Shown here: piece by piece, positions 11,758-51,365 of the stretch | How positions within the stretch are numbered: the stretch's first letter is position 1 | Layout of the letters: each line of letters starts with the position of its first letter | From: an uncultured Gammaproteobacteria bacterium | GTDB lineage: Bacteria > Patescibacteriota > Patescibacteriia > UBA9934 | Reading direction: 5' to 3' | Assembly (NCBI GenBank): GCA_964414795.1 | Contig: CAYPWV010000002.1 | Coordinates: 5,057-69,056, forward strand | DNA: 64,000 nucleotides | Notes under the pieces: model-generated | What the model was told of the DNA's origin: nothing | The model's database searches: none | What the model saw: the letters and a program-made list of their open reading frames with translations, nothing else | Translations under genes and position numbers: made by a program

Positions 11758-11783
11758 TTCCCTTATTATTCACGCTTCGTTAT

Positions 11784-17535: not shown

Positions 17536-17544
17536 GCATTGACG

Positions 17545-18962: not shown

Positions 18963-18965
18963 AGG

Positions 18966-19499: not shown

Positions 19500-19510
19500 G
19501 AAAACAGTTA

Positions 19511-20434: not shown

Positions 20435-20445
20435 ACACGCACTTG

Positions 20446-21520: not shown

Positions 21521-21531
21521 AGACGAACGGA

Positions 21532-22197: not shown

Positions 22198-22214
22198 AGT
22201 CAGAAACAGTTTGG

Positions 22215-22763: not shown

Positions 22764-22764
22764 A

Positions 22765-23538: not shown

Positions 23539-23579
23539 AGCAAAAATAAGATGAATAAATCCTCACGGACTTATCTTTG

Positions 23580-24002: not shown

Positions 24003-24058
24003 GCGGGTATTGTAAGGGATTCCTGCCTTAGCTACAAACGTCTCTCCCTCGGATCTTT

Positions 24059-24460
24059 TTACTCGGCGTTGATCTCGAATTTGTACATTCCCATCGAACA
24101 GGTTCCCTGAAGCGTTCCTACCGCCAATGTCCCAATATTTACGTCTGTAGTCCCCGTTGATGGCAGATTCTTGCTGATACCAAGATCCGGAATGCGCACG
24201 GAGGAAGAACAGTCATATGCGCCATTTGTGGCAAATCGTAGAACGGTAGGTACACCAGCTTTAACGGTGCTCGCCTGTGGTGAGTAGCCGCCTTTGACGT
24301 TTATCGCAACAATCTGCTGTCCTGCCACCGTGCTCACGTTCGAACTCGCGTTGGCTGTGACAGCGGTCTGCGACTGTCCGCCTCCACGGAACAAGAGAAA
24401 TGCACCAAGAACGAGTGCACCGACGATGAGGAGTGTCTTTGTGTTGGAATTCATATGCAT
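24059..24460 (-). CDS. small secreted protein, possible cupredoxin-like or metal-binding fold
   Basis: Signal/anchor 'LLIVGALVLGAFLLF'. 'GTCSMGMYKFEI' C/M-containing C-terminus. Confidence 0.35.
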   Translation of the reverse strand: MHMNSNTKTLLIVGALVLGAFLLFRGGGQSQTAVTANASSNVSTVAGQQIVAINVKGGYSPQASTVKAGVPTVLRFATNGAYDCSSSVRIPDLGISKNLPSTGTTDVNIGTLAVGTLQGTCSMGMYKFEINAE

Positions 24461-24469
24461 TTGATGAGA

Positions 24470-25489: not shown

Positions 25490-25493
25490 ATGC

Positions 25494-27785
25494 TTAGAGC
25501 GACTTCGTTTTCAGTCGAAGCGAATTGCCAACAACGGATACGCTCGAGAACGCCATCGCGAGTCCGGCGAAGACGGGGTTGAGGAGCCAGCCGAAGAATG
25601 GGAAGAACAGTCCTGCTGCCAATGGAATGCCGATGACATTGTACGCGAACGCCCAGAAGAGATTTTGCTTGATGCCGCGCATCGTCATTTTGGAAAGCGT
25701 GATTGCTTTGACGAGTTTGGAGATATCGCCGTGAAGCAAGGTGATGCCAGCGGATTCAATCGCGACATCTGTTCCCGTGGCCATCGCGATACCAACGTCT
25801 GCTCGTGCAAGCGCAGGAGCATCGTTCACGCCGTCCCCGGCCATCGCAACAACGTTTCCTTTTGATTGCAGTTCTTTGATCTTGGCGAGCTTGCCCTCAG
25901 GCAAGACTTCCGCAACAACTTCATCGACTCCGATCTGTTTGCCGATGAATGCGGCGGTGTTCTTATTGTCACCAGTGAGCATGACGACTTTTACGCCGAG
26001 TTTGTGCAGACGAGACACCGCTTCTTTCGCCTCAGGCTTTATCGCATCCGCAACCATCACAATGCCGATGACTTTTTCTTTGGTTGCGAGAATAACCGGA
26101 GTTTTACCTTCGAGTGTTTCCTTTTCCAAGGAGGACACATCGAACGATAACTTCAACGCCGTAACGAGCTTGGTATTTCCGGCGTAGTATTCGATTCCGT
26201 TTACAGTCCCTTTCAATCCTTGTCCCTTGATCGCTTCGAAGTTTTCTACGGGCGACAGGGTCAGTTTCTGCTTCTCGGCGTGGCTCGTAATTGCATGAGC
26301 GATGGGATGCTCAGACTTCTTTTCAAGCGATGCGAGAATGCTCACGAGTTCCTTTTCGTGAAGATCGGATAATGCACGAATAGAAACAAGTTCCGGTTTG
26401 CCGTTGGTGAGCGTTCCTGTCTTGTCGACAACAACCGTGTTCACTTTGTAGAGCTTCTCAAGCGTTGCCGCATCCTTCACGAGGATTCCTTCCTTGGCTC
26501 CCTTTCCAACACCTACGATAATCGCGGTCGGCGTGGCAAGTCCAAGCGCGCATGGGCAAGCGATAACAAGGACTCCAACGAACGAAACCAAACCGTTCGA
26601 CAATGCTTGCGAGAAGTCCATGTACTGACTTCCTACGATGAGCCAGGCAGCGAGCGTAAGGAATGCGATAACCAGAACAATTGGCACGAAGACGGATGAG
26701 ATTTTGTCCGCGAGTGCCTGAATGGGCGCACGGCTTCCTTGCGCTTCCTCGACCATCTTGATGATTCGCGCGAGCATTGTTTCCGAACCAACCTTGGTCG
26801 CCTTGAACGTAAACGAACCGTTCGTGTTCATCGTTCCCGAAACAACCGTATCGCCGACATCTTTCTTGATCGGCATCGGTTCGCCAGTCACCAGCGACTC
26901 ATCAACGTACGATGAACCTTCCGTGAGTACGCCGTCCACGGCAATACGACTTGCGGGCTTTACGATAATAAGTTCGCCGAGAACGACTTCGCTTGCGGGG
27001 ATCTCGACCTCCTCGCCGTCACGAATAACGAGCGCGGTCTTTGCCTGAAGATTGAGTAGTTTCTCTATTGCATCGCCGGTTTTGAGCTTGGATCGGGCTT
27101 CAAGGTATTTTCCAAGCGTAATAAACGCAACGACGACGATCGTTACGTCGTAATAGGTGTGCTCGACATTGAGGAACGGTGCGAGCGTTTCCGTAAAGGC
27201 GGTAATGACGAAGCTGTACAAAAACGCTGCGAGCGTACCAATGCCGATGAGCGTGTCCATGTTTGCCTTGCCGTAACGAAGGAATCGGTACAAGCCGAGA
27301 AGATACGGCTTGCCGACGACGAACAAGGTATACGTCGCCATGAGCGGAAGGAGGTGGTGAAAGAACTCACTCCACACGTACGGCATATCCGCAATCACGG
27401 AAAACTGAGCGAGAATGTCCCAGCCCATGATGAAAATGCTGACGATGGTCATGGGAATGACCGAAAGCACCTTGGTCTTCATGTCGGCAATCTCCGCAAG
27501 CTTCTCCTTTTTCGTCTGACTAATGCCAAGGTGAGCGGCATGCTCGCTCGGACTCATGTGCATGGACTCCGCCGTCAGAATGACAAGGGTATAGCCGAGC
27601 GGTTCGATTGTCTTTGAGAGTTGTTCGGGGTTGGTCTTAGCTGGATCGAAGGCGATCTTCGCCGCCTCGGTGCCGTAGTTCACTTCCGCCGAACTTACCC
27701 CGGCAGTTTTCTTGAGCGTCTTTTCAATGATGCCCGCGCAGGAGGCGCAGTGCATCCCTTTTATTTTATATGTGGTGGCATCCAT
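25494..27785 (-). CDS. copA: copper-translocating P1B-type ATPase
   Basis: 'GMHCASCAG' HMA domain. 'CPC' in 'IACPCALGLATP'. 'DKTGTLT'. 'GDGVNDAPAL'. Start set at MDATTYKIKG (27783-27785). Confidence 0.9.
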   Translation of the reverse strand: MDATTYKIKGMHCASCAGIIEKTLKKTAGVSSAEVNYGTEAAKIAFDPAKTNPEQLSKTIEPLGYTLVILTAESMHMSPSEHAAHLGISQTKKEKLAEIADMKTKVLSVIPMTIVSIFIMGWDILAQFSVIADMPYVWSEFFHHLLPLMATYTLFVVGKPYLLGLYRFLRYGKANMDTLIGIGTLAAFLYSFVITAFTETLAPFLNVEHTYYDVTIVVVAFITLGKYLEARSKLKTGDAIEKLLNLQAKTALVIRDGEEVEIPASEVVLGELIIVKPASRIAVDGVLTEGSSYVDESLVTGEPMPIKKDVGDTVVSGTMNTNGSFTFKATKVGSETMLARIIKMVEEAQGSRAPIQALADKISSVFVPIVLVIAFLTLAAWLIVGSQYMDFSQALSNGLVSFVGVLVIACPCALGLATPTAIIVGVGKGAKEGILVKDAATLEKLYKVNTVVVDKTGTLTNGKPELVSIRALSDLHEKELVSILASLEKKSEHPIAHAITSHAEKQKLTLSPVENFEAIKGQGLKGTVNGIEYYAGNTKLVTALKLSFDVSSLEKETLEGKTPVILATKEKVIGIVMVADAIKPEAKEAVSRLHKLGVKVVMLTGDNKNTAAFIGKQIGVDEVVAEVLPEGKLAKIKELQSKGNVVAMAGDGVNDAPALARADVGIAMATGTDVAIESAGITLLHGDISKLVKAITLSKMTMRGIKQNLFWAFAYNVIGIPLAAGLFFPFFGWLLNPVFAGLAMAFSSVSVVGNSLRLKTKSL

Positions 27786-27848
27786 ACCATTTTGGGTAAA
27801 ATTAAAACCAAGCAATATTCGCAATACTCAGCGAATGGAAGCCTGGTT

Positions 27849-28238
27849 TTAATCCCGCAAAATGACGGTGGACAGGTTTTGTTGGAGGAGCAGTTTTCCT
27901 ATACCCTCACGCCAACGTCGAAGCGATGGGTTGAAAGTTGAGAGAGGGCTTGGTGACCATTCAGAAACAAGAACGGCAACAACGGCTATAAGTACGATAA
28001 ACGCAAACGGTAAGGGCGTCACCACGGCTGTGGCTGTTGAAGTGGCGGACAAGCAGTGTTCCAGACATTCCGCCCCAGACGTTTCCATGCCTCCCGCATC
28101 GTGACAGGTTGCACTTATGCATGTGTCCGCGCCCATCAACATGCCCCCGCCGTGCATTCCAAAAATCGCCATTCCAGCCAGTGTGGTGAAAGAGAAAAGG
28201 ATGGAAGCAAGGAGAAATGAGAGAAAGGCACGTTTCAT
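27849..28238 (-). CDS. small Met/His/Cys-rich membrane-anchored protein (putative metal-binding)
   Basis: 'GMHGGGMLMGADTCISATCHDAGGMETSGAECLEHC'. Confidence 0.45.
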   Translation of the reverse strand: MKRAFLSFLLASILFSFTTLAGMAIFGMHGGGMLMGADTCISATCHDAGGMETSGAECLEHCLSATSTATAVVTPLPFAFIVLIAVVAVLVSEWSPSPLSTFNPSLRRWREGIGKLLLQQNLSTVILRD

Positions 28239-28282
28239 AGCATGAGTATACCTCGCTCTGATTCAGAGGAAAAGAGGGTTAT

Positions 28283-29749
28283 TTAGCCTATTGCTTCAGT
28301 AAACTTCCGATAGATCGCAATCATAGCGTAAGTATCGAGTCCACAGTACGCGAGCATGTCCTTTTTGAGCTGTTCCTTTGCTTCTAGCGAGATCGTCGGA
28401 TCGGTAAGGGTTGCCCAGCTTGCAGATGCTGTGCCACCCTCGTGGATGGCGAGATTGTTATATGAAAGTTCGGGACACATGACTGGCAATACCTTCTTGA
28501 TCGATGCACTTCCACCGAATCTTGAATCAACGTAATGACCTTTCTTCACAATCATCATGAGGTCGTACATGCGGTCGTTGATACTCGCCATGAAGTCCGT
28601 GAACTCGGGCAAGTATTCGCCGATCTCGGCGTTGCGTGATGCCTCAAAACGAGCGTTCCAGACGATAACGCTTCCTGTATCTCCGATGTGATTTTTGAGG
28701 GAGGCGGCAACACCTTGAGCAGGATCGATCATCTCCTCGGTAATATATTCGTAATGCTCGGGTTCTGCATTTGGTTCGCGCACAACATGAACAGAATACT
28801 GAAACACCATTTGCTGATAGGGACGGTAGCTATCAAAAATCGGTACCGCAGGAAAGAACGTTTCGTAATCCAAAAAGTAGAGTGGGTGCTGAAGGCTATC
28901 GAGTTCGGACTTAATCGTTTCTTTATCGACGGAAAGTGTTGGTTCGACTTTTACTCCCGGAAGTTTGATATTCGGCAATTCAGCCATGACATCGGCAGGG
29001 ATCTGCTCGGGCTTCAAAAGCCCTCGTTCAAGGAATGCGACGAGCTTTTCCTTGGAAAGCGAGGTCGCGATCGAATAGATGTGATCGTTATTCAACTCCG
29101 AGAAATAACACGACAGGAATTCGCATTCGGCAGGATTTGTGCAAGAAGAAACGTGCGTGAGACTTGGTGCCTTGTCCCACTCGACCACTGCAAGAGCACG
29201 AGGGATCTCCTTCTTCACCATCGGCATGACCGTTTCTACTTCGTGCGTAATGTCTTTGATGGCAAAAAGCTCGCGAGGATCAATCTCACCACGCCTGACG
29301 TATTGATTGTTGACGTGAACAAGAAACGTTTGCGCGACCCGTATTCCGGACTCCTCAAGACAGATGCGTTGAAACGCCACGTCGATGACGTGCTCCTCTT
29401 TAACGTCCGTCGAGCTTTTTACTTCGTAGATATTCCACGAACCATCGACATTCTTTGTGAGAATGTCGGAGCGGCAGGAAATCTTGCTCGTCATGAACGT
29501 TGGTTGGAGCAATGCCGTCGCCCCAGTTGCAATGGCTTTTTTAGTATTGATCGCCGCAGGCATTCCGAATCCATCAACGTTCACCGCATCGGGAAACAAC
29601 TTCTGTGCCCAACGGTCGACAACATTTCCCTCATCGAAAATTCGCTGAAGTGCGGGATCGGTCGGGGGAAATAAATCTGGTCGCTGCTTTGCAAGCCAAA
29701 GCTCACACGTGCAGCGAAGGAATTGCATGAAGTTGGACTTGGAGAGCAT
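28283..29749 (-). CDS. RecB/Cas4-like PD-(D/E)xK nuclease with C-terminal DUF2779-like (RNase H-like) domain
   Basis: N-terminal 'LSKSNFMQFLRCTCELWL' (RecB-family start). 'YEVKSS...QRI'. C-terminal 'YFLDYETF' DxE and 'CGLDTYAM'. Confidence 0.55.
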   Translation of the reverse strand: MLSKSNFMQFLRCTCELWLAKQRPDLFPPTDPALQRIFDEGNVVDRWAQKLFPDAVNVDGFGMPAAINTKKAIATGATALLQPTFMTSKISCRSDILTKNVDGSWNIYEVKSSTDVKEEHVIDVAFQRICLEESGIRVAQTFLVHVNNQYVRRGEIDPRELFAIKDITHEVETVMPMVKKEIPRALAVVEWDKAPSLTHVSSCTNPAECEFLSCYFSELNNDHIYSIATSLSKEKLVAFLERGLLKPEQIPADVMAELPNIKLPGVKVEPTLSVDKETIKSELDSLQHPLYFLDYETFFPAVPIFDSYRPYQQMVFQYSVHVVREPNAEPEHYEYITEEMIDPAQGVAASLKNHIGDTGSVIVWNARFEASRNAEIGEYLPEFTDFMASINDRMYDLMMIVKKGHYVDSRFGGSASIKKVLPVMCPELSYNNLAIHEGGTASASWATLTDPTISLEAKEQLKKDMLAYCGLDTYAMIAIYRKFTEAIG

Positions 29750-29754
29750 AGGCG

Positions 29755-31899
29755 TTATTCTGTTTCTTTCAGTATGGAAGCAACAAGGGCTTTATATTCT
29801 TCAGGAATGACGTAATTGTCTTTCGGCGCGCCTGGGCGTACGTCAGCAGAAAAGCGCACGATTTGCCTGAGGTGGTCATTCTCTTTTTTGGTAAGGAACT
29901 GGGAAATATTGCTCATAAGATGACCAGTGCGTGTCTGCGTATCTCCAAGACCAGCGGCAAATAGCGCATCACGCAGTGCCTCGCGCTCCATTGGCTCGGT
30001 TTCTTTTACGAGTACCGAAAGGAGGGTGCGGAAATAGCCATTCACCTTTCCGTCTTCCTGCAATGTCGTATGCAGACGTTCGCGCAATTCGTTATCCTCA
30101 TACGCGCCGACCGCATACGAGAGGCTCGGGTGGTCGAAGCTCTCCTTGCGAGCCGTGAGCCGCGATTGAACGTCATCAAGATTGATTTTCCAAGCATGAA
30201 GAAGTGCGCGAAGCATTTCTTCGGTGCGTGTTTGAATGACTTCCGGTGTCCATGCTTCGTACCGCTTGAGATCGGTCGTCATGGCAAAGGCGGAAGTTCC
30301 GTCATTCAAAGTTTGACCGGTATAGATTGCGATCTTTTCCGCGAATGGTTTATTGGAAGCGGATTGATTTTTTGAGGTGTTTTTCTCCTCGGTACTCCCA
30401 ATAAGAAGCGTGAGGTTTCCAAGAGTATTCACGAGTTCGTGCTGTTCCGTGGAACTAAAACGCTTCTCCCATTCCGGCGAAGTCATTGTTTGCGGAAGAA
30501 TATGTTCGATCTGTACGGTCTTGTCGAAATGAATCTCGCGAGCCATCGACGCGTCAGTAAGCGCATATTCAAATTTTGCGAGCGCATAGCGGCACCAGCT
30601 TGCGTTGTAGCAATCGCCGCGAAGATTGGTAACTGCTCGCTCAATAGCCTGAAAGCGATCGAGGTACTGTTCGCAAACGACCGCGATACTTTCCACGGAT
30701 TTTTTCTGGAGAATGTATTCGCGAATAATGAGCATGGCGGGGTCGCGCAAAATCGTTGAGGCATCTCCGGCAACGCGAGACAGCGCGAACAAACGCTCAA
30801 TATGGAACGTCAGCGATTCGAGGGACGGCTTGTCGTATCCCATGCGGACGGCCGCAATGAGAATCGCTTGCCAATATCGATTTCCGCCGTGTTTTAAAAG
30901 ACGAATATTGTTCCGCGCCGACGGCGCGAGCGTATCAAAAACAGAGCCTTGCGTGAGCGACGTATACGCGTCAACGGTCTTGAGCCAATCGTGCAGAAAT
31001 TCGATAGCATCGAGCTTGGCGTCGAGAATGAGATTGGTAATCTCCTTGAAAAGATCGCGCTTCGTGCGCTGTCCCGTCACCGCCTCGCGGTGGAGTATGA
31101 GCGACTCGTCCATGTCGAGTTCCGCATCCTCGGCGCGTTGCCACAAAGAAAGAAACGTTCCCGACTCTCTTTGGAAAAGCGTTTGTACGCGTACCTCGTC
31201 CGCCTCACGTCCCTTCAATTCCTGAAAAAGCGCGTTGAGAAGATAGTTCTTTAGCAGATCCTTCGCGGCAAGTTCCTGCCCGCGATAGTTGATACGTTCA
31301 AAAATGGTGTAGGCGGCGTTCAAGTCGGCAGTGACGATAAGAACGACCGAGACGCGATCAAGAACATAGGAGAGCAGATCAGAGAGGCTTCCTGCGTCTG
31401 CGACGAACGCGGCAAGACGATCACGGAATAACGTCCGCGCAATTGAAAACGATTCTGGTAGGCGTTCGAGATCTTGGGAGACTTCAGGATTCTCCTTCAG
31501 GAAGGCGTGCTCGTAGGCGGTTCGATCCTGCTGTCGCGTTACGAGCGTCGGCAGGCTTCCGCGATGAAGAAGCGTCGATTGAATTTCTGTCGCGACCACG
31601 TTCCCATCCTTTGCGAGCAGATCTCGCATGACCGAGAGAAAAATGCTGGTCGTTGTAAATCGTTGCTGACCGTCAACGATATCGAACTCGCGACCTTTGT
31701 CCTTCTCAATCAAAATGAATGAGCCAAGGAAATATTCCGCGTGTTGGCGACGATACGCATCGAGAACGTCGTCGATATATTCCTCTATCTCTTTCTTGCC
31801 CCAAGAATACGGACGCTGATAGTCCGGAATCACGTAGGTATGTTGTTGGTTGCGAAACAATTCGCCGAGCGTTCGTTGTTCAAGATTCGTTATCTTCAT
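29755..31899 (-). CDS. GmrSD/BrxU-like DUF262 + DUF1524 (His-Me finger) modification-dependent nuclease
   Basis: 'YVIPDYQRPYSW' and 'DIVDGQQRFTT' (DUF262/ParB-like NTPase). C-terminal 'VQIEHILPQ' (DUF1524 HNH-like). Confidence 0.8.
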   Translation of the reverse strand: MKITNLEQRTLGELFRNQQHTYVIPDYQRPYSWGKKEIEEYIDDVLDAYRRQHAEYFLGSFILIEKDKGREFDIVDGQQRFTTTSIFLSVMRDLLAKDGNVVATEIQSTLLHRGSLPTLVTRQQDRTAYEHAFLKENPEVSQDLERLPESFSIARTLFRDRLAAFVADAGSLSDLLSYVLDRVSVVLIVTADLNAAYTIFERINYRGQELAAKDLLKNYLLNALFQELKGREADEVRVQTLFQRESGTFLSLWQRAEDAELDMDESLILHREAVTGQRTKRDLFKEITNLILDAKLDAIEFLHDWLKTVDAYTSLTQGSVFDTLAPSARNNIRLLKHGGNRYWQAILIAAVRMGYDKPSLESLTFHIERLFALSRVAGDASTILRDPAMLIIREYILQKKSVESIAVVCEQYLDRFQAIERAVTNLRGDCYNASWCRYALAKFEYALTDASMAREIHFDKTVQIEHILPQTMTSPEWEKRFSSTEQHELVNTLGNLTLLIGSTEEKNTSKNQSASNKPFAEKIAIYTGQTLNDGTSAFAMTTDLKRYEAWTPEVIQTRTEEMLRALLHAWKINLDDVQSRLTARKESFDHPSLSYAVGAYEDNELRERLHTTLQEDGKVNGYFRTLLSVLVKETEPMEREALRDALFAAGLGDTQTRTGHLMSNISQFLTKKENDHLRQIVRFSADVRPGAPKDNYVIPEEYKALVASILKETE

Positions 31900-34800
31900 A
31901 TTTGCAAAGGCGTAGCTGACTGTCCCGAACCCTCTATAATCCGTTTTTCTTTATCCGTGATTCCGTAAAGATTGAATATCTTTTCATTGATTTCATTCTC
32001 TAAGCCATGTGCCACATCAGAGCTTCCATGATCTTTTCTCAAATCAGTAAGCCGATCAACTAATGAGATCAATTCGGACTCATCTTTGTCATTAGGAACT
32101 ACAACTGGAAGAATTTCAATTTTATATTTCTTCCATCGGTTCGTCCCCATTCCAGAAGTAGTGGAAATTTGCTCAAAATACCATTTACCCAAAGCCGAAT
32201 TGAGAACTGCTACTAAGAATTTAAGATGTTCGCCGGTGAGAATAAAGAGGGTTGCTTCAGCAAAATACCCTTGATCGTCGAAAGCAAATTTTGGCTCATC
32301 GGAAAGCTCCCCCCAAATTATTTTTGGACGAACAAAATCATCGTAGTAATCGCACGAACGCAATTCCCACCAGTATTTTCCCTGATCCTCACGGTCGTAT
32401 AACCCCTTTCCCTTTGCTTTAACCGTAGCACCAATATGTTGCAAATAGCTATAAATAGAGGGGTGCTGCGTCTTGAAAAATTCTTCGGGATTCATATCTC
32501 CTCGGTGTAAATCAGTCCATCCAGATGGAATGACAAACATCCACTCATCACCGAACTCATAAAAGAACTTTTGAACGTTTCTTCCTCTCAATATAGGTTT
32601 AATCAATTCTGCAGATTGAGGATTTTCTCTAACTATTTCTTCACGTACAGTTCCGCCAAAAATAAATGCCTGATTATATCCTGTTTTAATGCCGAAGTTT
32701 ATTCTTATTCCAAGTTCTTTTACTGGCTTGCCGATGTCATCTATTTTTTGTTTGAGATTTTGTGAATCTTCGTTGCCGACAAGCCATCCGTTCTGCTCAT
32801 CAAGCTTCTCAATGTTGACTGAGTTTTTTTCTACGAAATTTGCTAGCGATGTTCGTTCGTGTTGCTCACTTGTTAGCACGGCACCTGTTAGTTTCCCTTG
32901 CCATGAACCCTTGCGAGCAAAAAAGATGCAGGCTTCGACAGTGGCCGCTTCAAAAACTTGTGCATTCTCGATGTTAATTAGAATAAATGGGTCGGCTTTT
33001 GTAACCAGGAATTTACGCAATGATTTTCCGTAAAGAGTTCTTAGCCATGAATTTGAAGTGATATAAGAAATGATTCCACCCTTGGAAAGAAGATTGGCAC
33101 CACGTTCATAAAAAAGACAGTATAGATCCCCTCGTTTCTCATACGTTGAGTAAACGCTTGCATAACTTGCACGCTGTACCTCAGATATCTTCATTTTTTG
33201 AAGCTGGACGTAGGGCGGATTACCAATAACCACTCCAAATCCATTTTCAATTCCAAACATTATTTGTGGATCAAAAAATGTAGCCGTATTTTCAGCATTA
33301 AATGGCTGATAGGTTTTTAGTTGCTTTTCTCTATCCGAAGAGAACATTCCGTCCATTCCGTTTTTTCCTTTAACGAGGGTTTCAAATTTTTCCCGTAATT
33401 CCTGCTTTCGGGAATGCTTTCTTGCTCGGAAATATTCGTCACGAATTTCTATGAGCTGATCTTCTTTGAGTGTGTCGTAAAGTCCTTCAGCATGGTCAAG
33501 TGGCATCAATGAATTCGCGCAGACGAACTTGAAATCAAGGTTTGGCAATGGCTCAATACGACCATCTGATACATCCTCATCAACGATGATTGAAAGCCAA
33601 GCACGAAGACGGGCGATCTCTACCGCCATCGGCTCAATATCAACGCCAAAAATGTTATTTTTGATAATCGTTAGTTTTTTCTTGTAGGGATCATAATCGC
33701 TTTCCAAGCGATCGTATGTTTCCAGGAGAAGCTGGAGCATGCCCATTGGAAAAGCACCCGATCCACAAGCTGGGTCGAGCACCGTAAGCTCTTCTAGAGC
33801 TTCGAGAATGTCGTGCTTATACGGTTTAAGGTCTCCCCGATAATTCCGTTGCTGATCCCGGAACTCATGTGGTTTTTTATCAAGTAACTTTGCAAGTTGT
33901 TCGTCACGATCCGTCGTTTCAGGAATCCTAGATCGGAGATATTCTCGTAAACTCTCCTTACACATGTAATCAACGATCTCCCGGGGGGTGTAGAATGCAC
34001 CCTTCGCCTTGCGAGCCTGTTCTCCGGTTTCTTCGATCTGTTCCGCGAGCAAATTTTCAAAAATACGACCCAACATTTCAGGATCAATTGCTACCTGCTG
34101 AAACGTACTTGAGGACTCATCGGTCGTAAAGTTATAGCGGCGAAGAAATTCGTAGAGACGATCAAAATAATCTGCCGGAAAAGAAACGCGGACATCACCC
34201 TCATGGTCGCCAGTTTTTGCCTCGAACAAACCTCCGTTGAGAAATGGAGTTTTTATATCCAGTCCACTGATACGTTCGTCAACTGGTGTGTTAAGAATTC
34301 TGAAAAATAATGTTTCGAGTTTTGTGCGATAATGTTCAGATGCGGCTAAACCATTTGTTTGAAAGTAATTAACTTCTGTATTTAGAATTCCTTTTTTATC
34401 AATGAACCAACAGAAGATGATGCGACCAATAAGACGGTTTACGAATAAAGCCGCCGAATGATCATCAAACAGGTCTTTTGATTTTGAAAGGAGATGTTGT
34501 TTGAGCTCTGTAAAGAATGAGCTGATCGTCTTGTAAAAGACTTTATTTATTGCCTCAAAGTTAAAGCTATCCCAAAGTATTTGATGGAGTTGCGCTTTGT
34601 TCGAAAAATTAAAAGGCTGAGTCCATTTTGAAAAAATCTCGGAAGCAGTTGGAGAAAGACGGTCGCGCAACTCGATAACACGTAAAGCATGTTCTTTGCT
34701 TAAGACAACGAAAACCCGATCAGCTTTTTCTGGAATGACGAAATCTATACCAACATTTTCTGATGCAAGCCAGGGCGCATCTTCGAAGTTAGGTGTAATC

Positions 34801-35132
34801 GCTGTCACCCAATGAATGACGGATTTATTCGTGTTCTGTACCCAGTAAGTTTTAAAGTCGAGTTTTCGATCATTTCCCTTAGCCACTTCGTAGACTGCCC
34901 GTCGGTCAGCATAACCATCGGCGGGCATGAACCAGTGACCATTCGAGCGAATTTTTCCCGCTGAATCGCTAAATAACCTCCAGCCGTCAGGTTCGCCCGA
35001 AACACCAAGAAGAGCGATGACAGCGTTAATCACCGCCTGCGTTCCTTGGAAGGAATGATTTGCAGCAAGCGAGTGTAGGGCATTATCGATCTGCCGAAGT
35101 AGCTGATTGGGGTTATTCGTTTGTTCTGGCAT
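31896..35132 (-). CDS. MmeI/PglX-like (type IIG/IIL-like) gamma-class N6-adenine DNA methyltransferase, 1078 aa
   Basis: 'FLNGGLFE' motif. 'GAFYTPREIVDYM' (motif X). 'LDPACGSGAFP' (motif I). 'GNPPYVQ' (motif IV). Long C-terminal TRD-like region. ATGA overlap with the downstream gene. Confidence 0.8.
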   Translation of the reverse strand: MPEQTNNPNQLLRQIDNALHSLAANHSFQGTQAVINAVIALLGVSGEPDGWRLFSDSAGKIRSNGHWFMPADGYADRRAVYEVAKGNDRKLDFKTYWVQNTNKSVIHWVTAITPNFEDAPWLASENVGIDFVIPEKADRVFVVLSKEHALRVIELRDRLSPTASEIFSKWTQPFNFSNKAQLHQILWDSFNFEAINKVFYKTISSFFTELKQHLLSKSKDLFDDHSAALFVNRLIGRIIFCWFIDKKGILNTEVNYFQTNGLAASEHYRTKLETLFFRILNTPVDERISGLDIKTPFLNGGLFEAKTGDHEGDVRVSFPADYFDRLYEFLRRYNFTTDESSSTFQQVAIDPEMLGRIFENLLAEQIEETGEQARKAKGAFYTPREIVDYMCKESLREYLRSRIPETTDRDEQLAKLLDKKPHEFRDQQRNYRGDLKPYKHDILEALEELTVLDPACGSGAFPMGMLQLLLETYDRLESDYDPYKKKLTIIKNNIFGVDIEPMAVEIARLRAWLSIIVDEDVSDGRIEPLPNLDFKFVCANSLMPLDHAEGLYDTLKEDQLIEIRDEYFRARKHSRKQELREKFETLVKGKNGMDGMFSSDREKQLKTYQPFNAENTATFFDPQIMFGIENGFGVVIGNPPYVQLQKMKISEVQRASYASVYSTYEKRGDLYCLFYERGANLLSKGGIISYITSNSWLRTLYGKSLRKFLVTKADPFILINIENAQVFEAATVEACIFFARKGSWQGKLTGAVLTSEQHERTSLANFVEKNSVNIEKLDEQNGWLVGNEDSQNLKQKIDDIGKPVKELGIRINFGIKTGYNQAFIFGGTVREEIVRENPQSAELIKPILRGRNVQKFFYEFGDEWMFVIPSGWTDLHRGDMNPEEFFKTQHPSIYSYLQHIGATVKAKGKGLYDREDQGKYWWELRSCDYYDDFVRPKIIWGELSDEPKFAFDDQGYFAEATLFILTGEHLKFLVAVLNSALGKWYFEQISTTSGMGTNRWKKYKIEILPVVVPNDKDESELISLVDRLTDLRKDHGSSDVAHGLENEINEKIFNLYGITDKEKRIIEGSGQSATPLQI

Positions 35133-38100
35133 ACATCAGAAGCGGTTCCGCCCCGTTAGGCCGCTCAACACGGTCAATATTACGTTGAAGTGTTCGGGCA
35201 ATATCAAGAATCGTTTGAACGTCTTGTAGGACCGAACCATTTTCATTCTTTGTTTTTACAATACGACGCACACACTTTTTCATATCTTCACGAGCAAGGA
35301 CATTCTTCGTACCAAATGCCATTCGTACAACATCAAGATCGTCTTGCGAAAAATGAAGTTCGTACATGATCCGAAGAACGTCTCCTTGTTGTCCAACAGG
35401 AGCGATGACCACTTCGTCATCATGATAAGCCTCTGCGGCTTCCTTCGCGCGGGCTAAGAGATTAACCCGATCAGCACTGATGTGATCAGCTTGACGTTCA
35501 TTGCTCCGTTGAATTGTTGAACGAAGCCATTCAAGAGCCTGTAGTTGAGGCACGTGGTGCATTTCGCGTCCATCTCTATTCATGGCTACAAAAGCATAGC
35601 CAAGGGTAACTTCAGAAGAGCTTTGAAGAGAAACGAGTGAGAGGATATCGGGGCGTTCGTCACCGCGAGATGTCGCGGTCGGCATCACCCCCCATTTCCT
35701 TTTTGGAATATTGTATATTTCCGCCTTCTGTTCTGGTGTGTGATTTGGATCGTGATGGAATCTCTTCAAGTCTGAAACAAACTCATCTTCGGCGAGCAAG
35801 AAATCAGCTTCGCCCTCAGCATTTTGAATCGCTTCCATGCGCGCCTCGACATCACTACTGTAAACGTCCTTCCAAGAATCAACGAACTCTATCGGATTCG
35901 CTTTTTCATCGAGCACTGGAGTGTCCGTACCGATAGTGTTACGAATGAGATCGATCTTTCGTTCAAGGCGTGCGACCAAACGCAGATATTCGTCCAATTG
36001 TCCCTCTGGAGAAATGTTATAAATGTAGACATCCTTGAATGATGTTCCAAGACGATTCACTCGACCGTTTCTCTGGATCATACGAACGGGATTCCAGTGA
36101 AGGTCATAGTTCACAAGAATGCCGCAGTCTTGAAGATTCTGTCCTTCTGACAAGATATCGGTCGAAAAAAGATAGGATAATTCTTTTTCTCCATCCTTCA
36201 GTGCGTGTTGTTTGGAGACAGGAGAGAATCGACCCGCAAGCGATTCTGCATCCTCTCGATTATTTGAAGATAAAAATGCAGCGTTATCTTTATTTACGAC
36301 ATTCGTACGCGTTTCAACCACTTCACGCAGATAATTAATCGTGTCAGCGTAATAGGAGAAAATAAGGACTTTTTTACCAGCTGGTTGACGCTTTGCAAGA
36401 TCCTCAATGAGACCAATAAAAGTCTTGAGTTTTGAGTCGTCTTCGTGAAGGACGACTAATTGCTGACGAAGCAAATCAATTAACTCACGTTCCTTTGCAA
36501 CGTCGGCTTTGAGCGCATTGACTACGTAATTATTTTCATCGATTGTGTCGTGAATGAATTCCTCAGGCATTTCAACTTCTTCCGCATCTTTATCCTCAAC
36601 GTCACCAAGGATTTCGTCGATTTCATCAATGTTCGTTAACGTAATAATTTTCCCTTGGCGTAACCCACGCTCAAAGATCTCGAGCTTGTGATCGTAAGTC
36701 TCCAGCGATGAATGAATTGCGCTGACCGAAGATTCGAGACGTTTCAGGAACATCGTACGGAGAATGCCGTAGATACTAAGCTGAGAGAACAAACTGTTTC
36801 GTTCATCGCTCGAAAGCTTCATTTCCTTAATTTCTTCGCGGGTCTTTCCGTAAAATTTTGTTTGATACATCTGCCAACGGTAGGGCAAGAAACCGAGCAG
36901 AAGGATCGTACGATAAATTAAGGCGATGGGAGAAGTAACATCCGCTGTCTCACCTGAGGATTGCGCGTTACTTATCTGATCGATCGGATGTGTGAGCCGC
37001 TGAGTGGCATCAACGATATCGCTAATCGTCAAAGAGTACAGCGAGTCTAGATCGACCGAATCAGTGGTGATGTCTCGAATTCTTTTTGCAACCTCTTCGT
37101 TAAACCGGTATGTACGAACATCTGGAACGACTTTGGGGAATGTTTGTAGAACACCCTGATCATCTACAAGTCCACCGTATTCCTTCTCAATCCCTTGGCG
37201 TGTTCGACGGACAACGAACTCACGGAGGATCGGAGACATGGTTGCTCGAACATACCCGAAATCAATCGACTTTCCTTCCTCGGCATCTCGTTTAATTGAG
37301 CGTGCAAGATTTTCTACTGCCTGATTGAAGTCAACGATTGTGGTCTGCTTGTTCTTTTTATCTGGCACGGCAAAGCGTAGAAGACCTGCTTCTCCTCGGC
37401 ACGCAAGCAAGATTTGGTTGGTGATATCGGAGAGCTGGTTGTTAATTGGTGTGGCAGTCAAAAGCAAGACATGAGCTTTTGGATTCGCGCCAATCCATTC
37501 AGTGATTTGCTTGAAGCGTTTTCCGGAACGACTTTTAAGGTTATGCGATTCATCAATCACGAATAATCCAACGGCAGCAATTGAATCAAGACCTTGTCTG
37601 CGCTCAATCTCGCGAGGATTTTGCAACGTGATAGGCGTAGAGCCATCCATCCTTTGGGTCGCCATTTGTTTCTCCCATTGCACGGTAAGAGATTTCGGAC
37701 AAATAATCTCAACACGCAAGCCGGATTCTTTATACTGCTTAATGACCTCAATCGCCGTGATAGTTTTTCCTAATCCTACCGAGTCAGCTAGCATTGCAAC
37801 CTTATGCTTCCGTAACCGACGCATGAGGCCGTGAACGTTTTTCATTTGAAAATCGTGCAGGGTAAATGTTCCACGGGTGGTTTCCTTCAAATCTTCGTCT
37901 TCCAACTCCTCTTTATAAATTTCGTACAAAGTTTTGATGTACATCTCATATGGCGTAAAAAGCATGTCGCCATGTGAAGATTGGGAAATAATCGCGGTAA
38001 ACGATTGATCCCACGGAAGAGACTTATTCCAAAATTGGTCAAACCATGCGAGGTGACCGACCTCCTGATCTTCGACGCGTGGAGTGTAAGTAACGATACG

Positions 38101-38583
38101 ATGATCGGCTTCGAGTGCGTTGAGTTCGGTATTGGCGGTCAAGCCGTTCTTCGTGAAGTTAGATGAGCCAATAATGCCCACCGCTTCAGGGGATTCGTAG
38201 TTTCCAAAAATATAACACTTCGCGTGGAAGAATTCTTCTTTATAAACCCTAACTTCAAGTACGCCTTTTGCGATTAAATCTTTGATTGTAACGACGGACT
38301 CTCTAAAAGTTTCATTGTGTTCAAGACGTTCCAAGTCTGAGAAAAAATCCTTATCGGGAAAGTCGACCTCGGGTTTTTTTAATTGGTATCGGGGAATGAG
38401 AGGTTCGCGACCAATAAGCAAACGGATTTTCTTGCAGTCCTTTAGTTGGGGTAAAACAAGCGTTGTACCGGGGAGATCCCAATAGCCAGTAGCGATCGAG
38501 ATTTCTTCGTGTTTAGTGGCAAGCTCCTGAAATGCAGCAAGAAGTGACTGTCGGTGATTATCGATGATTCGAGAAGTTGCCAT
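35113..38583 (-). CDS. phospholipase-D-family nuclease domain fused to an SNF2-family helicase (~1156 aa)
   Basis: N-terminal HKD 'HAKCYIFG...GSSNFTKNG'. Helicase 'FVIDESHNLK', 'LLLTATPINN', 'NPVRMIQRNGRVNRLG'. Start at the internal ATG 38581-38583 (MATSRII); the ORF extends to 38634. Confidence 0.8.
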   Translation of the reverse strand: MATSRIIDNHRQSLLAAFQELATKHEEISIATGYWDLPGTTLVLPQLKDCKKIRLLIGREPLIPRYQLKKPEVDFPDKDFFSDLERLEHNETFRESVVTIKDLIAKGVLEVRVYKEEFFHAKCYIFGNYESPEAVGIIGSSNFTKNGLTANTELNALEADHRIVTYTPRVEDQEVGHLAWFDQFWNKSLPWDQSFTAIISQSSHGDMLFTPYEMYIKTLYEIYKEELEDEDLKETTRGTFTLHDFQMKNVHGLMRRLRKHKVAMLADSVGLGKTITAIEVIKQYKESGLRVEIICPKSLTVQWEKQMATQRMDGSTPITLQNPREIERRQGLDSIAAVGLFVIDESHNLKSRSGKRFKQITEWIGANPKAHVLLLTATPINNQLSDITNQILLACRGEAGLLRFAVPDKKNKQTTIVDFNQAVENLARSIKRDAEEGKSIDFGYVRATMSPILREFVVRRTRQGIEKEYGGLVDDQGVLQTFPKVVPDVRTYRFNEEVAKRIRDITTDSVDLDSLYSLTISDIVDATQRLTHPIDQISNAQSSGETADVTSPIALIYRTILLLGFLPYRWQMYQTKFYGKTREEIKEMKLSSDERNSLFSQLSIYGILRTMFLKRLESSVSAIHSSLETYDHKLEIFERGLRQGKIITLTNIDEIDEILGDVEDKDAEEVEMPEEFIHDTIDENNYVVNALKADVAKERELIDLLRQQLVVLHEDDSKLKTFIGLIEDLAKRQPAGKKVLIFSYYADTINYLREVVETRTNVVNKDNAAFLSSNNREDAESLAGRFSPVSKQHALKDGEKELSYLFSTDILSEGQNLQDCGILVNYDLHWNPVRMIQRNGRVNRLGTSFKDVYIYNISPEGQLDEYLRLVARLERKIDLIRNTIGTDTPVLDEKANPIEFVDSWKDVYSSDVEARMEAIQNAEGEADFLLAEDEFVSDLKRFHHDPNHTPEQKAEIYNIPKRKWGVMPTATSRGDERPDILSLVSLQSSSEVTLGYAFVAMNRDGREMHHVPQLQALEWLRSTIQRSNERQADHISADRVNLLARAKEAAEAYHDDEVVIAPVGQQGDVLRIMYELHFSQDDLDVVRMAFGTKNVLAREDMKKCVRRIVKTKNENGSVLQDVQTILDIARTLQRNIDRVERPNGAEPLLMYARTNE

Positions 38584-38707
38584 AGGAAAAATATTCCCTC
38601 GAATTTTATCAGAAAATGACCACAGGAGCAACATAATTGTTCATGCCCAGGAAAGTAGAATAATCTGACCTAATACTAGCAAATATTGGCGTTTTTTAAT
38701 CAATTAG

Positions 38708-38728
38708 TTACCTACAGCTTACCTACAG
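38708..38728. repeat. tandem direct repeat 'ttacctacag' x2 upstream of the recombinase gene
   Basis: 38708..38717 and 38719..38728 are identical 10-mers separated by 1 nt, about 60 nt upstream of the ATG. Confidence 0.5.
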
Positions 38729-38790
38729 GTCGTGACTAGGCACCCGGGACAGACGCGGTAGTGTGTGGGTATTAGGAGTAACCAAATCTT

Positions 38791-40122
38791 ATGTACGGAC
38801 AAAATACGAATAACGAAACGCAGGCTATACCAATCCGCTACTGCCTTTATGCAAGAAAATCGTCCGAGGACGATGAACGGCAAGCCTTATCGATTGAGAG
38901 TCAGGTTAAAGAGGTTATGGAATTAGCAGTGAGAGATGGATTGAGCGTTATAGAAGTTCGTCGAGAAAGTCACTCCGCAAAAAGCTCTGGGTCACGCCCA
39001 GAGTTTAATCGTTTAATAGGAGACATTCGTGAAAAGAAATTCGATGGAATCCTCACATGGGCAGCAGATCGTATCAGTCGTAACGCTGGTGATCTTGGTA
39101 CGGTCGTCGACTTGATGGATCAAGGCTTGCTTAAAGAAATCAGAACGCATGGACCCCGATTCACCAACTCACCAAGTGACAAGTTCATGCTCATGATGAT
39201 GTGCGGTCAAGCAAAGCTGGAAAACGATAACAAAGGCGTAAACGTGAAGCGAGGCTTCCGAGCGAAAGTAGAGATGGGCTACAGACCGAATATGTCACCG
39301 CTCGGCTATCTCCATGACAAATATGCAGAAAAGGGTGCCCGTAGAATTTTCATGGATCCCGAGCGTGGACCGATGGTTAAAGAGATCTTCCATAAGGTTG
39401 CATACGAAGGTTGGACGGGACGCAATATCCAGAACTATATGAAAGAAAAAAACTTCACCACGCGCAAAGGAAAAAATGTTTCGCTGAGTATGATCTATCG
39501 CATGATGGATAACCCTTTCTACACGGGTCGATACGAATTTCCGCAGAAGAGCGGTCAGTGGTATCAGGGAAAACATGAGCCGTTAATAACAAAAGATGTG
39601 TTCGAGCGGGTTCAGGAAGTCATGAAAGTAACAGGAACACGGGTACCGCCAGGAACACACGAATTCGGATTCACACGAATGTTTAAATGTGGAAACTGTA
39701 ATTCAGGAATCAGTGCTGAGGAAAAGAAGAAGCGTTTGAAGGACGGCACGATAAAGCGATACGTTTACTACGGATGCATGAAACGCTGGGTGACCGGCTG
39801 TAAGGAGCCGTACATTCGAGAAGAAGAGCTATTGAGCCAGCTTTGTAAAATCATTGAGAGCGTCGACATCGATGAACTCGCCGCTGTCGCGCGGATTAAA
39901 GAGGAAATAGATCGACTAACCAAGATGATCTCGAGTCTCGGTGGTCACATTGCAACCGCAAAAGTTGCCGAAATCATGCCAGACATCGACGTATATGCAT
40001 GTGCAAAATACATCCTTAAAGAAGGGACAAAAGAGGAAAAACGAGATTTACTGGGACACGTTCGAACTGAGCTAACAATCACTGGAGGAACTATCACCAA
40101 TCGTGCTAAGAGAAAGAAATGA
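38791..40122 (+). CDS. large serine recombinase, paralogous to 7059..8378
   Basis: 'YCLYARKSSEDDERQALSIESQ', 'GILTWAADRISRNAGD', 'CGNCNSG...YYGCMKR' Zn ribbon. Roughly half of residues identical to the first recombinase by eye. Confidence 0.85.
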   Translation: MYGQNTNNETQAIPIRYCLYARKSSEDDERQALSIESQVKEVMELAVRDGLSVIEVRRESHSAKSSGSRPEFNRLIGDIREKKFDGILTWAADRISRNAGDLGTVVDLMDQGLLKEIRTHGPRFTNSPSDKFMLMMMCGQAKLENDNKGVNVKRGFRAKVEMGYRPNMSPLGYLHDKYAEKGARRIFMDPERGPMVKEIFHKVAYEGWTGRNIQNYMKEKNFTTRKGKNVSLSMIYRMMDNPFYTGRYEFPQKSGQWYQGKHEPLITKDVFERVQEVMKVTGTRVPPGTHEFGFTRMFKCGNCNSGISAEEKKKRLKDGTIKRYVYYGCMKRWVTGCKEPYIREEELLSQLCKIIESVDIDELAAVARIKEEIDRLTKMISSLGGHIATAKVAEIMPDIDVYACAKYILKEGTKEEKRDLLGHVRTELTITGGTITNRAKRKK

Positions 40123-41205
40123 CCGTTGATGGAGATGCATCATGGCTCTAGGCGTAATGTTCCCAAGTACAAAACCAAATAGATGATCTGGTGAAATAAT
40201 TCTGTGCGGGAACCAAAAACTTTCTGGATCTTCGCAGGTAAGGCAAATGCTACCCGATCTTGAAACGTTAATTCTCAACTTTCCGTTCAAAAGTTTGTAA
40301 TCTACGTTATCGAAAGCGCCTCCACTTTTTACGGTGCTACCAGGATTTAGACCTGCTTTTTCTACAGACCAGTGAACCAACGAATCGACATTTATGGGTT
40401 TGTTAAGCACAAACTGAATTGAAAAGTATTGCCTACCGAAGCAAGTTAGGATCGAATTTAAATCCACTTTGCACGCTGGCTTATAGCGAATGCTGGTGAT
40501 GAAACTTTTGCACTTAACTCCGTTTTGCTGAGAATTTGGTTGACCCTTAGGTGATGTGTGCGTATCCACCGAAATCTGCGGTGCAGTGATCTTAGAAACG
40601 AATTCTTCTCTTTTCTCAACTATCTTTTTATCGTCAAAGCCGCTCTTTTTCAAGGCATCAACAACCAGATTGTTCAAATTAGCCAAAAAAGCTTTGGATG
40701 TTTGTAAAACTTCGTCCTCCATTTTATCTTCCGTGGGAATGTAGTCTCTGAATTCAATAATGGTTTCTTTTATCGCTGTACTAGTTCCTATACGCCAAAG
40801 GTATATGTCATCTGTAATCTCACCAGCAATACCAATCAGCAATTGCTGTTGAGTCGGGGTAATATCTCTGTTGTGTGCTAGCGCGTTGCGGAAATTTTCC
40901 GCTACAGAGAGATACTGCATCGTCTTTTCCCACTCTTTGAAAACTTCTTCAAATAAAGCCTTATGTTTTGCGAGAAGAGTTTTTAGATGCGAGAACTCGG
41001 AGTATGCCAATGGCAGATCATAAATAGCAACATCTCCTCTGGTTGATCTGTCGGATTTAGCTTTTTCTTGCAAAGCTCTATAGCCAGACCATTCCTCAAC
41101 CAGTCCAACATCTTTATTGTCAGTCCAAGAAACGCCAAACTTATCTGATAAAACATCGTGGATCAGATTCCGCAGTTCGTTTTCTATCATTTTAATTGGA
41201 TCCAT
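40072..41205 (-). CDS. HEPN-like domain protein (N-terminal Rx4H motif) with a C-terminal domain of unknown function, 377 aa
   Basis: 'ENFRNALAHNRDITP' (R-x4-H, Swt1/Abi-type HEPN signature). Confidence 0.5.
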   Translation of the reverse strand: MDPIKMIENELRNLIHDVLSDKFGVSWTDNKDVGLVEEWSGYRALQEKAKSDRSTRGDVAIYDLPLAYSEFSHLKTLLAKHKALFEEVFKEWEKTMQYLSVAENFRNALAHNRDITPTQQQLLIGIAGEITDDIYLWRIGTSTAIKETIIEFRDYIPTEDKMEDEVLQTSKAFLANLNNLVVDALKKSGFDDKKIVEKREEFVSKITAPQISVDTHTSPKGQPNSQQNGVKCKSFITSIRYKPACKVDLNSILTCFGRQYFSIQFVLNKPINVDSLVHWSVEKAGLNPGSTVKSGGAFDNVDYKLLNGKLRINVSRSGSICLTCEDPESFWFPHRIISPDHLFGFVLGNITPRAMMHLHQRSFLSLSTIGDSSSSDC

Positions 41206-41206
41206 A

Positions 41207-43639: not shown

Positions 43640-43714
43640 TGGCTCCGGGGGAGGGGATCGAACCCTCGACCTGAGGATTAACAGTCCTTCGCTCTGCCGC
43701 TGAGCTACCCCGGA
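43640..43714 (-). tRNA. tRNA-Asn (anticodon GTT)
   Basis: Minus-strand sequence folds as a cloverleaf. Acceptor TCCGGGG/CCCCGGA (7 bp). D-arm GCTC..GAGC. Anticodon loop CTGTTAA. T-arm GAGGG-TTCGATC-CCCTC. Discriminator G and encoded CCA. Confidence 0.8.
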
Positions 43715-51264: not shown

Positions 51265-51365
51265 GACTATTAGTCATCCCGGGCTTGACCCGGGATCCAT
51301 CGCATCAAGAAAAAATAATTAAAAACGATGGATGCCGGATCGGTGTCCGGCATGACGAAAATGCT

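Follow-up and report, generated by a model that had tools for sequence, protein, structure and literature searches.

What is the four-gene block that occupies the middle of this stretch of DNA: one elaborate defence machine, or several systems that lie end to end? The stretch, which we call the window, comprises 64,000 nucleotides (nt) of contig CAYPWV010000002.1 (positions 5,057 to 69,056; GenBank assembly GCA_964414795.1) from an uncultured bacterium that is labelled as a Gammaproteobacterium and placed by GTDB in the Patescibacteriota, and its minus strand carries four closely packed genes for a PLD-SNF2 fusion protein, an N6-adenine methyltransferase, a GmrSD-family endonuclease and a nuclease with Cas4-like and DUF2779 domains. 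The initial annotation took all four for a single composite or novel defence module on an integrative island. We think that the block is more probably three separable things, namely a two-gene, ATP-dependent restriction-modification (RM) core made up of PLD-SNF2 and the methyltransferase, an independent type IV GmrSD enzyme, and a loosely associated Cas4-like/DUF2779 nuclease. The best reading of the two-gene core is that it resembles a split Type ISP enzyme, kin to MANTIS (BR type-2) and to the DrmD/DrmMI module of DISARM, and without the ATPase or DrmAB cores of those systems. We are evenly balanced on the larger claim that the pair is a distinct and widespread minimal class of two-component, ATP-dependent RM, that is, a stand-alone form of the module in DISARM class 1, BREX type 3, ARMADA and BR/MANTIS, which would restrict without an AAA+ loader, vary its specificity through swapping and inversion of target recognition domains (TRDs), and spread by satellite-like elements in Patescibacteria (the candidate phyla radiation, CPR) and by plasmids of lactic acid bacteria.

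Much of the initial annotation is borne out by a plain reading of the open reading frames (ORFs): all four minus-strand genes lie where it had placed them (Table 1), every peptide motif that it quoted is found in the translations, and its domain assignments for all four proteins, including the PLD/SNF2 fusion and the DUF262/DUF1524 combination, are matched in Pfam. The junctions that it described can each be seen in the letters. The end of the PLD-SNF2 gene and the methyltransferase ATG lie in a 20-nt overlap, ATGCCAGAACAAACGAATAA, the methyltransferase and GmrSD genes overlap by ATGA, and a gap of 5 nt (TAA-CGCCT-ATG) separates the GmrSD gene from the DUF2779 gene. Read from its first ATG, the PLD-SNF2 ORF spans 35113-38634 and encodes 1173 amino acids (aa), with an in-frame upstream ATG at 38634; independent gene callers choose the start at 38583, which gives the 1156-aa protein. 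A scan of 27.4-39 kb for consensus promoters and terminators found sites no commoner than in shuffled sequence, and this leaves co-transcription neither supported nor contradicted.

Table 1. Positions in the window of the four genes of the block, the TRD cassette and the flanking landmarks
Feature	Positions	Strand	Remarks
PLD(HKD)-SNF2 motor-nuclease	35113..38583	-	1156 aa; gene-caller start, ATG at 38583
MmeI/PglX-fold gamma-class N6-adenine methyltransferase, one TRD	31896..35132	-	1078 aa
Exchangeable TRD cassette	31924..33189	-	from just past the NPPY motif to the methyltransferase gene end
GmrSD-family type IV (modification-dependent) endonuclease, DUF262 + DUF1524/HNH	29755..31899	-	714 aa; embedded accessory
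Cas4-like PD-(D/E)xK domain + DUF2779 (predicted DEDD 3'-5' exonuclease)	28283..29749	-	488 aa
Large serine recombinase	38791..40122	+	Pfam Resolvase, Recombinase, Zn_ribbon_recom; divergent from the operon
tRNA-Asn(GTT)	43640..43714	-	ARAGORN; island edge

Which of these genes belong together? In a survey of one genome per GTDB species, 403 stretches encode a relative of PLD-SNF2, and we took 79 loci with 10-kb flanks (numbered with an L below) and described the neighbours by tblastn and by clustering all adjacent ORFs. The methyltransferase is the only universal partner, lying directly downstream and on the same strand in practically all of those among the 79 loci whose flanks are long enough. 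Where both genes were called, their ORFs overlap or are no more than 11 nt apart in 50 of 53 loci; the remaining three have a single gene between the pair, a RhuM-family gene in two (L064 and L071; L071 4017-5054) and a 171-aa ORF of no assigned family in the third. Searching from the other side, with homologues of the methyltransferase, brought up L081, L082 and L083, all with PLD-SNF2 directly upstream. Neighbour clustering of the 79 loci yielded no conserved third component: GmrSD appears as a neighbour of PLD-SNF2 in the window only, apart from one distant upstream copy, and DUF2779 in 8-9 loci. The initial annotation had named a failure of the four genes to co-occur in other genomes as grounds against its reading, and this failure is what the survey shows, for PLD-SNF2 and the methyltransferase alone occur together. 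This pair is both widespread and mobile, since it is found in metagenome-assembled genomes (MAGs) assigned to Patescibacteria, Omnitrophota, Bacteroidota, Actinomycetota, Pseudomonadota, Cyanobacteriota/Vampirovibrionia and Bacteriovoracaceae and on small plasmids of the lactic acid bacteria Lactococcus and Lactiplantibacillus. In addition, a partial methyltransferase, 59% identical, is found in an Asgard archaeal MAG (Hodarchaeales; P0230).

Homologues of the PLD-SNF2 protein number in the thousands, and their length is very uniform at about 1160 aa. Pfam recognises PLDc_2, SNF2-rel_dom and Helicase_C in it, and its best PADLOC match is 'HKD+Snf2' C3a139, with DrmD second. The predicted structure is of moderate quality (a predicted local distance difference test score, pLDDT, of 73.6), and in Foldseek it finds SNF2 remodelers, RapA (along nearly the whole chain) and SauUSI, a PLD-helicase restriction enzyme. 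The HxK and GSxN motifs of the PLD nuclease and the Walker A, DExH and motif VI signatures of the ATPase are all kept in 48 of 48 aligned loci. Remoter homologues, at 27-28% identity, occur on cyanobacterial and archaeal plasmids, with Eco57I-type methyltransferases nearby in another gene order and uncharacterised genes between, and no DUF499 domain was recognised near them. A scan of IMG/VR for PLD-SNF2 returned 2 distant matches only, and on that account we no longer regard the pair as typical phage cargo. Upstream of PLD-SNF2, two kinds of gene recur in parts of the survey. A 96-aa XRE helix-turn-helix gene lies directly upstream in 14 loci of one clade, largely Bacteroidota MAGs (L059, L062-L066, L068, L071-L073 and L076-L079; for example, L078 9166-9456), and its product resembles the controller (C) protein of RM systems. 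Eight Patescibacteria-type loci (L010, L012, L017, L021, L022, L037, L039 and L045; L010 2808-3950) have a 377-aa gene upstream, which in L010, L012, L017 and L021 is followed by a 104-aa gene; neither has a Pfam match.

The methyltransferase matches Eco57I, MmeI_Mtase, TaqI_C and, weakly, MmeI_hel in Pfam. Its AlphaFold2 model is good (pLDDT 82.9), and searched at full length with Foldseek it is closest to PglX/BrxX (template modelling score normalised to the query, TMq, 0.50) and also finds MmeI (5HR4; TMq 0.48, and 0.65 normalised to the target, TMt), with CamA matching the methyltransferase and TRD half. From the matches to PglX/BrxX and MmeI we derive the domain order of MmeI: an N-terminal domain (N-domain), a helical spacer, a gamma-class N6-adenine methyltransferase and one TRD. 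The 48 loci all retain motif I and NPPY, and the lone TRD would predict an asymmetric site with methylation confined to one strand, by analogy with MmeI, BREX and MANTIS.

How the parts of the methyltransferase vary is where the relationship between the two proteins becomes most informative. Over the 48 loci, identity in the N-domain follows identity in the helicase with a correlation coefficient (r) of 0.96, the catalytic core with r=0.80 and the TRD with r=0.25, shared descent contributing to all of these values, and mean TRD identity is 22%. The contrast between N-domain and core on the one hand and TRD on the other shows that specificity changes hands freely and that everything else descends together with the helicase. 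The window, L002 and L091 illustrate this, having helicases that are 98.6-99% identical and three unrelated TRD cassettes. The window and L002 share 31% identity in the TRD against 99% in the helicase, and in the comparison with L091 (helicase 98.6%) the cassette in Table 1 is the sole non-homologous stretch inside the operon; in both, the breakpoints fall just past the NPPY motif and at the gene end. These three loci form a natural specificity-swap series, and such alignments show the exchange of TRD cassettes by which specificity is diversified. A second route may be inversion. In L081 (10266-12716) the methyltransferase is immediately followed by a spare TaqI_C TRD cassette in inverted orientation, with a small serine invertase beside it; this locus has two sets of inverted repeats, one of 120 nt (93% complementary) and one of 26 nt. 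The arrangement of inverted spare cassette and adjoining invertase recurs directly behind the methyltransferase in L085 (L. cremoris JM1 plasmid NZ_CP016750, 8763-10230). Both look like phase-variable TRD inversion loci and tell the same story of specificity turnover, and a passing note in PMC9881135, on TRD phase variation and TRD inversion in relatives, is consistent with them. In the 53 loci of L002-L080 that have a full-length methyltransferase no spare cassette was found; L081 and the Lactococcus plasmid are the only cases.

Might the methyltransferase be a self-sufficient Type IIG or IIL enzyme that carries its own nuclease in the N-domain, with PLD-SNF2 as a separate or auxiliary effector of, for example, the SauUSI or Hna kind? 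We consider a yes unlikely. PADLOC does call the protein REase_MTase_IIG, at 738 bits, the order of its domains matches that of MmeI, and the N-domain (residues 1-230) has an alpha/beta core in which residues 103-169 follow the alpha-beta-beta-beta-alpha pattern expected of a restriction-endonuclease-like core, with E117, D118, D130 and E154 kept within the window's clade. However, catalytic residues are not assignable in this domain, it has no Pfam MmeI_N match, its profile found only chance antibody matches among PDB sequences, and in the 48-locus alignment, which includes divergent Bacteroidota-type loci, no lysine is conserved and the same four acidic residues fall below 80% conservation. 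The strict coupling of the two genes and the correlation of the N-domain with the helicase point instead to one machine. The N-domain would more likely serve as an adaptor than as a nuclease.

If PLD-SNF2 and the methyltransferase are the core, what are the other two genes doing behind them? The assignment of the third is straightforward: its translation has the DGQQR motif of a DUF262 N-terminal domain and the HNH motif of a DUF1524 C-terminal domain, both halves score above the Pfam cut-offs (GmrSD_N 2.8e-34, 119 bits; GmrSD_C 2.8e-22, 79.5 bits), and a C-terminal extension of about 140 aa carries no assignment. PADLOC gives HEC-06 as its best match (240 bits), in line with the GmrSD-like genes embedded in Hma; such genes are known inserts in Hma/BR operons (PMC11232893). 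The gene is missing from L002, which has PLD-SNF2, the methyltransferase and DUF2779, and it is present in L091 at 94.5% identity, behind the different TRD of that locus. L002 is homologous to the window over 33211-41206 and the DUF2779 gene, and non-homologous over 29749-33210 (GmrSD and the C-terminal part of the methyltransferase) and over 17536-28294 (a metal-resistance block). In L092 and L093, which hold a system 65% identical, a different 412-aa DUF262-HNH gene occupies the GmrSD slot and TerL comes directly after it, and what separates the methyltransferase from TerL in other related elements is variously a gene for a DUF6119 protein, one for a UvrD helicase, a DUF2779 gene, or a spare TRD accompanied by an invertase. 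GC content, too, shifts within the block, from 0.41-0.45 at 32-38 kb to 0.50 in the bins of 28-32 kb, where GmrSD and DUF2779 lie. Given the varied content and the change in GC, this interval is best described as a variable cargo slot, and both GmrSD and DUF2779 look like swappable add-ons rather than core components.

The fourth protein matches DUF2779 (6.9e-38) and Cas_Cas4 (2.2e-6) in Pfam and Cas4 in PADLOC, and DUF2779 belongs to a 3'-5' exonuclease clade of the RNase H-like superfamily (PMC3985635). It is found near the pair in about 9 of the 79 loci, in varied positions and on either strand, so that its association with the pair appears loose, and it was not found in the phage collection. 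DUF2779 genes on plasmids also adjoin other defence-like genes: on the Planktothrix and Aliarcobacter plasmids L088 and L087, one case has a PLD-family protein, a DEAD helicase, an ATP-binding protein and a PAPS-reductase-like gene for neighbours, and the other a PD-(D/E)XK nuclease and a WYL protein. DUF2779 may be part of other defence modules.

It is of course tempting to see the four genes as one integrated defence machine in which modification is backed by several nucleases, as the initial annotation did. The tight junctions invite it, GmrSD follows the methyltransferase both in the window and in L091, and DUF2779 comes within 10 kb of the pair more often than the 1-2 loci in 79 that we would roughly estimate by chance. 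Against this stand conservation that is limited to the pair, an L002 that does without GmrSD despite a 99% identical helicase, the GC shift, the wandering position and strand of DUF2779, and a slot that in related elements holds quite other genes, and we regard a single four-gene machine as improbable. The part of the initial proposal that survives is that these are defence-related genes on a mobile island; the part that does not is their unity.

How, then, might the pair work? We would expect the methyltransferase to read a short asymmetric site, to methylate it as a mark of self, and to double as the specificity subunit for restriction. As each PLD-SNF2 chain has one HKD motif, it presumably dimerises into one active site, as do BfiI, SauUSI and MtsD, and sites that lack methylation would recruit or license it, probably by way of the co-evolving N-domain of the methyltransferase. 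It would then move along double-stranded DNA at the expense of ATP and cut non-specifically, and by analogy with Type ISP, Type III and MANTIS cleavage would probably be best between inverted sites. GmrSD, translationally coupled behind the methyltransferase, would, judging from its family, cover phages whose hypermodified DNA escapes the pair, and, more speculatively, the Cas4-like/DUF2779 nuclease may process DNA ends.

Several points weigh against a two-gene core of this kind, and they deserve to be gathered in one place. The activities of the PLD-SNF2/methyltransferase family are predicted ones, and contact between the two proteins is predicted from linkage and co-variation, with shared descent inflating r. 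The N-domain occupies the position of the MmeI nuclease and keeps its four acidic residues in the window's clade, PADLOC places the protein in a class that combines nuclease and methyltransferase, and a residual nuclease in the N-domain is possible. GmrSD is present in two of the three closest relatives and is ATGA-coupled in the window, so that functional cooperation with the pair is possible as well. Finally, the MANTIS methyltransferase needs the AAA+ loader MtsA together with MtsB in order to bind DNA (bioRxiv 10.64898/2026.09.23.753747), and a system that has neither may therefore work differently.

Where does the block sit, and what moves it? Its place is the variable cargo slot of an integrative island that derives from a phage and lies at tRNA-Asn. 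Both the serine recombinase and the tRNA gene that the initial annotation had seen beside the block are indeed there, the recombinase is likely to be the island's integrase, and the tRNA-Asn flank is common to the window, L002 and L091. Upstream of the block come the recombinase, a weakly HEPN-like 377-aa gene, a 522-aa gene, a 194-aa gene and tRNA-Asn, and then the housekeeping gene pepA. On the downstream side, 19.5-27.8 kb holds a heavy-metal/redox block with a P-type ATPase, an HMA-DsbD (DsbD-like) protein, a cupredoxin, two DsbA-like proteins and a CDF protein; as the roughly 10.7 kb of 17536-28294 to which it belongs (GC 0.51-0.53) is missing from the otherwise collinear L002, we take it for an insertion in the same cargo slot. 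A ParB-methyltransferase, a second methyltransferase, TerS and TerL lie at 11.8-15.7 kb, and a second large serine integrase at 7059-8582. The whole of 7059-15683, with a tail-like ORF in addition, makes up a phage-derived module that has counterparts in L092 (13453-21201) and L081 (14394-17687), L092 also having an HTH/ImmA(M78) pair and a second recombinase. In about 11 loci, drawn from several phyla of MAGs, the ParB-methyltransferase/TerS/TerL module is syntenic with the pair, and no capsid genes were seen with it; the element may be a phage-derived or satellite-like integrative one of Patescibacteria (CPR) genomes. In the survey as a whole the neighbours of PLD-SNF2 include serine recombinases (22 loci), phage-type methyltransferases (12), TerL (9) and TerS (8). 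The search for attachment (att) repeats of the island gave one weak 25-nt pair only. A possible att remnant is seen in L002, where 39 bp at 1242-1280 repeat without mismatch the 5' half of tRNA-Asn (window 43678-43716) at a distance of about 90 bp from the complete tRNA gene; no equivalent repeat was found in the window.

Two other parts of the window recall defence genes. The two minus-strand genes at 40072-42775, separated by 1 nt, are a possible second defence pair: the 377-aa protein has a weak Swt1-like HEPN match and a PADLOC candidate match, PDC-M34B, at 43 bits, and the 522-aa protein a faint GapS1-family match (35 bits, cut-off 320). L002 keeps the HEPN gene at 91% identity with a different partner (471 aa). 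At 51144-52217 on the plus strand, a 357-aa ORF matches PADLOC QatD at 71 bits; no other Qat genes were seen, and it may be a TatD-like housekeeping DNase.

With so much mobility around it, the pair could be seen as mainly a selfish module for addiction or epigenetic control, one that stabilises its mobile element rather than defending the host. The adjoining serine recombinases, the TerL/TerS/ParB-methyltransferase module and the small plasmids would all suit such a role. They are compatible with defence as well, and the hypervariability of the TRD and the TRD inversion loci are typical of diversification driven by phages, so that we hold a mainly selfish function to be improbable and continue to read the pair as a restriction-modification core.

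Why should this pair be of interest beyond one island? The defences built around PglX-like methyltransferases (BREX, DISARM class 1, ARMADA and BR/MANTIS) have mechanisms that are hard to resolve, partly because so many proteins are needed; for example, the in vitro reconstitution of MANTIS restriction is still outstanding (bioRxiv 10.64898/2026.09.23.753747). A system that in nature consists of two proteins, one of them motor and nuclease in a single chain, would offer a simpler model, and it could reveal how a methyltransferase of the PglX/MmeI type passes an unmethylated site on to an SNF2 translocase-nuclease. The three near-identical systems with different TRDs furnish a ready-made specificity-swap experiment. 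In addition, annotation pipelines label the methyltransferase 'Type IIG' and leave the helicase an orphan, and the system is under-called as a result. The literature that we searched, which was not exhaustive, has neither a named system nor experiments for this exact pair, and the only trace is a table entry in PMC9881135.

How does the pair compare with systems that have already been described? As the initial annotation had concluded, the DISARM and BREX cores are missing: neither Pfam nor PADLOC matches DrmA, DrmB, BrxC, PglZ or DUF499 among the ORFs of at least 330 aa in the whole 64-kb window, and none of these is among the recurrent neighbours in the 79 loci. Class 1 DISARM contains an SNF2 helicase, an Eco57I-type N6-adenine methyltransferase and a PLD nuclease, and domains of these three kinds occur in the window, which differs in lacking the defining DrmA/DrmB (DUF1998) core and in having its PLD fused to SNF2. 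BREX differs in its BrxC ATPase and PglZ phosphatase, which are missing from the window and from the related loci, although the likeness of the methyltransferase fold to PglX is real. We hold it to be most improbable that the block is what remains of a class 1 DISARM, BREX or BR type-2 (MANTIS) locus, decayed or partial after the loss of its core genes, for although its domain content fits DrmC, DrmD and DrmMI or MtsD and MtsC and there are partial matches to DrmD, PglX and DrmMI in PADLOC (DrmMI 78 bits, compared with 738 for the Type IIG model) and NCBIfam, more than 50 independent loci in many phyla keep all catalytic motifs without DrmA, DrmB, BrxC, PglZ or DUF499, and the scores lie far under the cut-offs (168.6 bits against 610 for DrmD NCBIfam NF038317, with the C-terminal lobe of PLD-SNF2 alone aligning, and 110 against 500 for NCBIfam BREX-1 PglX).

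The nearest described relatives, which the initial annotation overlooked, are the DUF499-centred BR type-2/MANTIS systems (Gao_RL; MtsA-D), made up of a DUF499 ATPase, a DUF3780 protein, an N6-adenine methyltransferase and an HKD-Swi2/Snf2 helicase (PMC12839542; bioRxiv 10.64898/2026.09.23.753747). Theirs is the closest described architecture: an N-terminal HKD nuclease on a superfamily 2 (SF2; Swi2/Snf2) helicase, a PglX-like N6-adenine methyltransferase and an RM-like logic, and the window's helicase shares the RapA-like overall architecture too. In MANTIS the methyltransferase sets the specificity of both methylation and restriction, and we liken the pair to it in this. The differences are that the window and more than 50 related loci are without the DUF499 AAA+ ATPase (MtsA) and the DUF3780 protein (MtsB), and that the order in the window is helicase and then methyltransferase, overlapping. 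No adjacent ORF that was scanned matches DUF3780 in Pfam, and the one-clade XRE protein is the only recurrent small neighbour; nor does the methyltransferase apart any large neighbour recur as a conserved one. PADLOC 'PLD_Helicase' (84 bits) and NCBIfam 'phospholipD_antiphage' (130 against a cut-off of 1100), models whose equivalence to MtsD we assume, give weak and partial matches.

The Type ISP enzymes LlaGI and LlaBIII recognise an asymmetric site, translocate on ATP and cleave upon collision (PMC3874165), and their nuclease, SF2 translocase, gamma-class N6-adenine methyltransferase and single TRD all have counterparts in the pair. The difference is that the window divides these parts between two polypeptides, with a PLD/HKD nuclease in place of the Mrr PD-QxK nuclease and an ATPase that is SNF2/RapA-like, and no membership of Type ISP was found for the pair at the level of sequence. 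With MmeI and the Cj0031-type Type IIG/IIL enzymes the methyltransferase shares a helical spacer, a gamma-class N6-adenine methyltransferase and a TaqI_C TRD in one chain; it is set apart from these, and from PglX/BrxX, by an N-domain with no recognisable PD-ExK motif and by its obligate pairing with PLD-SNF2. The 714-aa DUF262/DUF1524 protein resembles GmrSD, BrxU and HEC-06 and lies within an RM-like operon, as reported for Hma (PMC11232893), the difference being that its host system is the two-gene pair and not BREX or Hma. ARMADA is another system in which a RapA-like SNF2 helicase accompanies a PglX-like methyltransferase (PMC12458937), and from this we conclude that a module of SNF2 helicase and PglX-like methyltransferase recurs; in the window it stands alone, with the nuclease fused. 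All the parts of the pair belong to known kinds, and it is as a form of ATP-dependent, methylation-based restriction that the pair is new.

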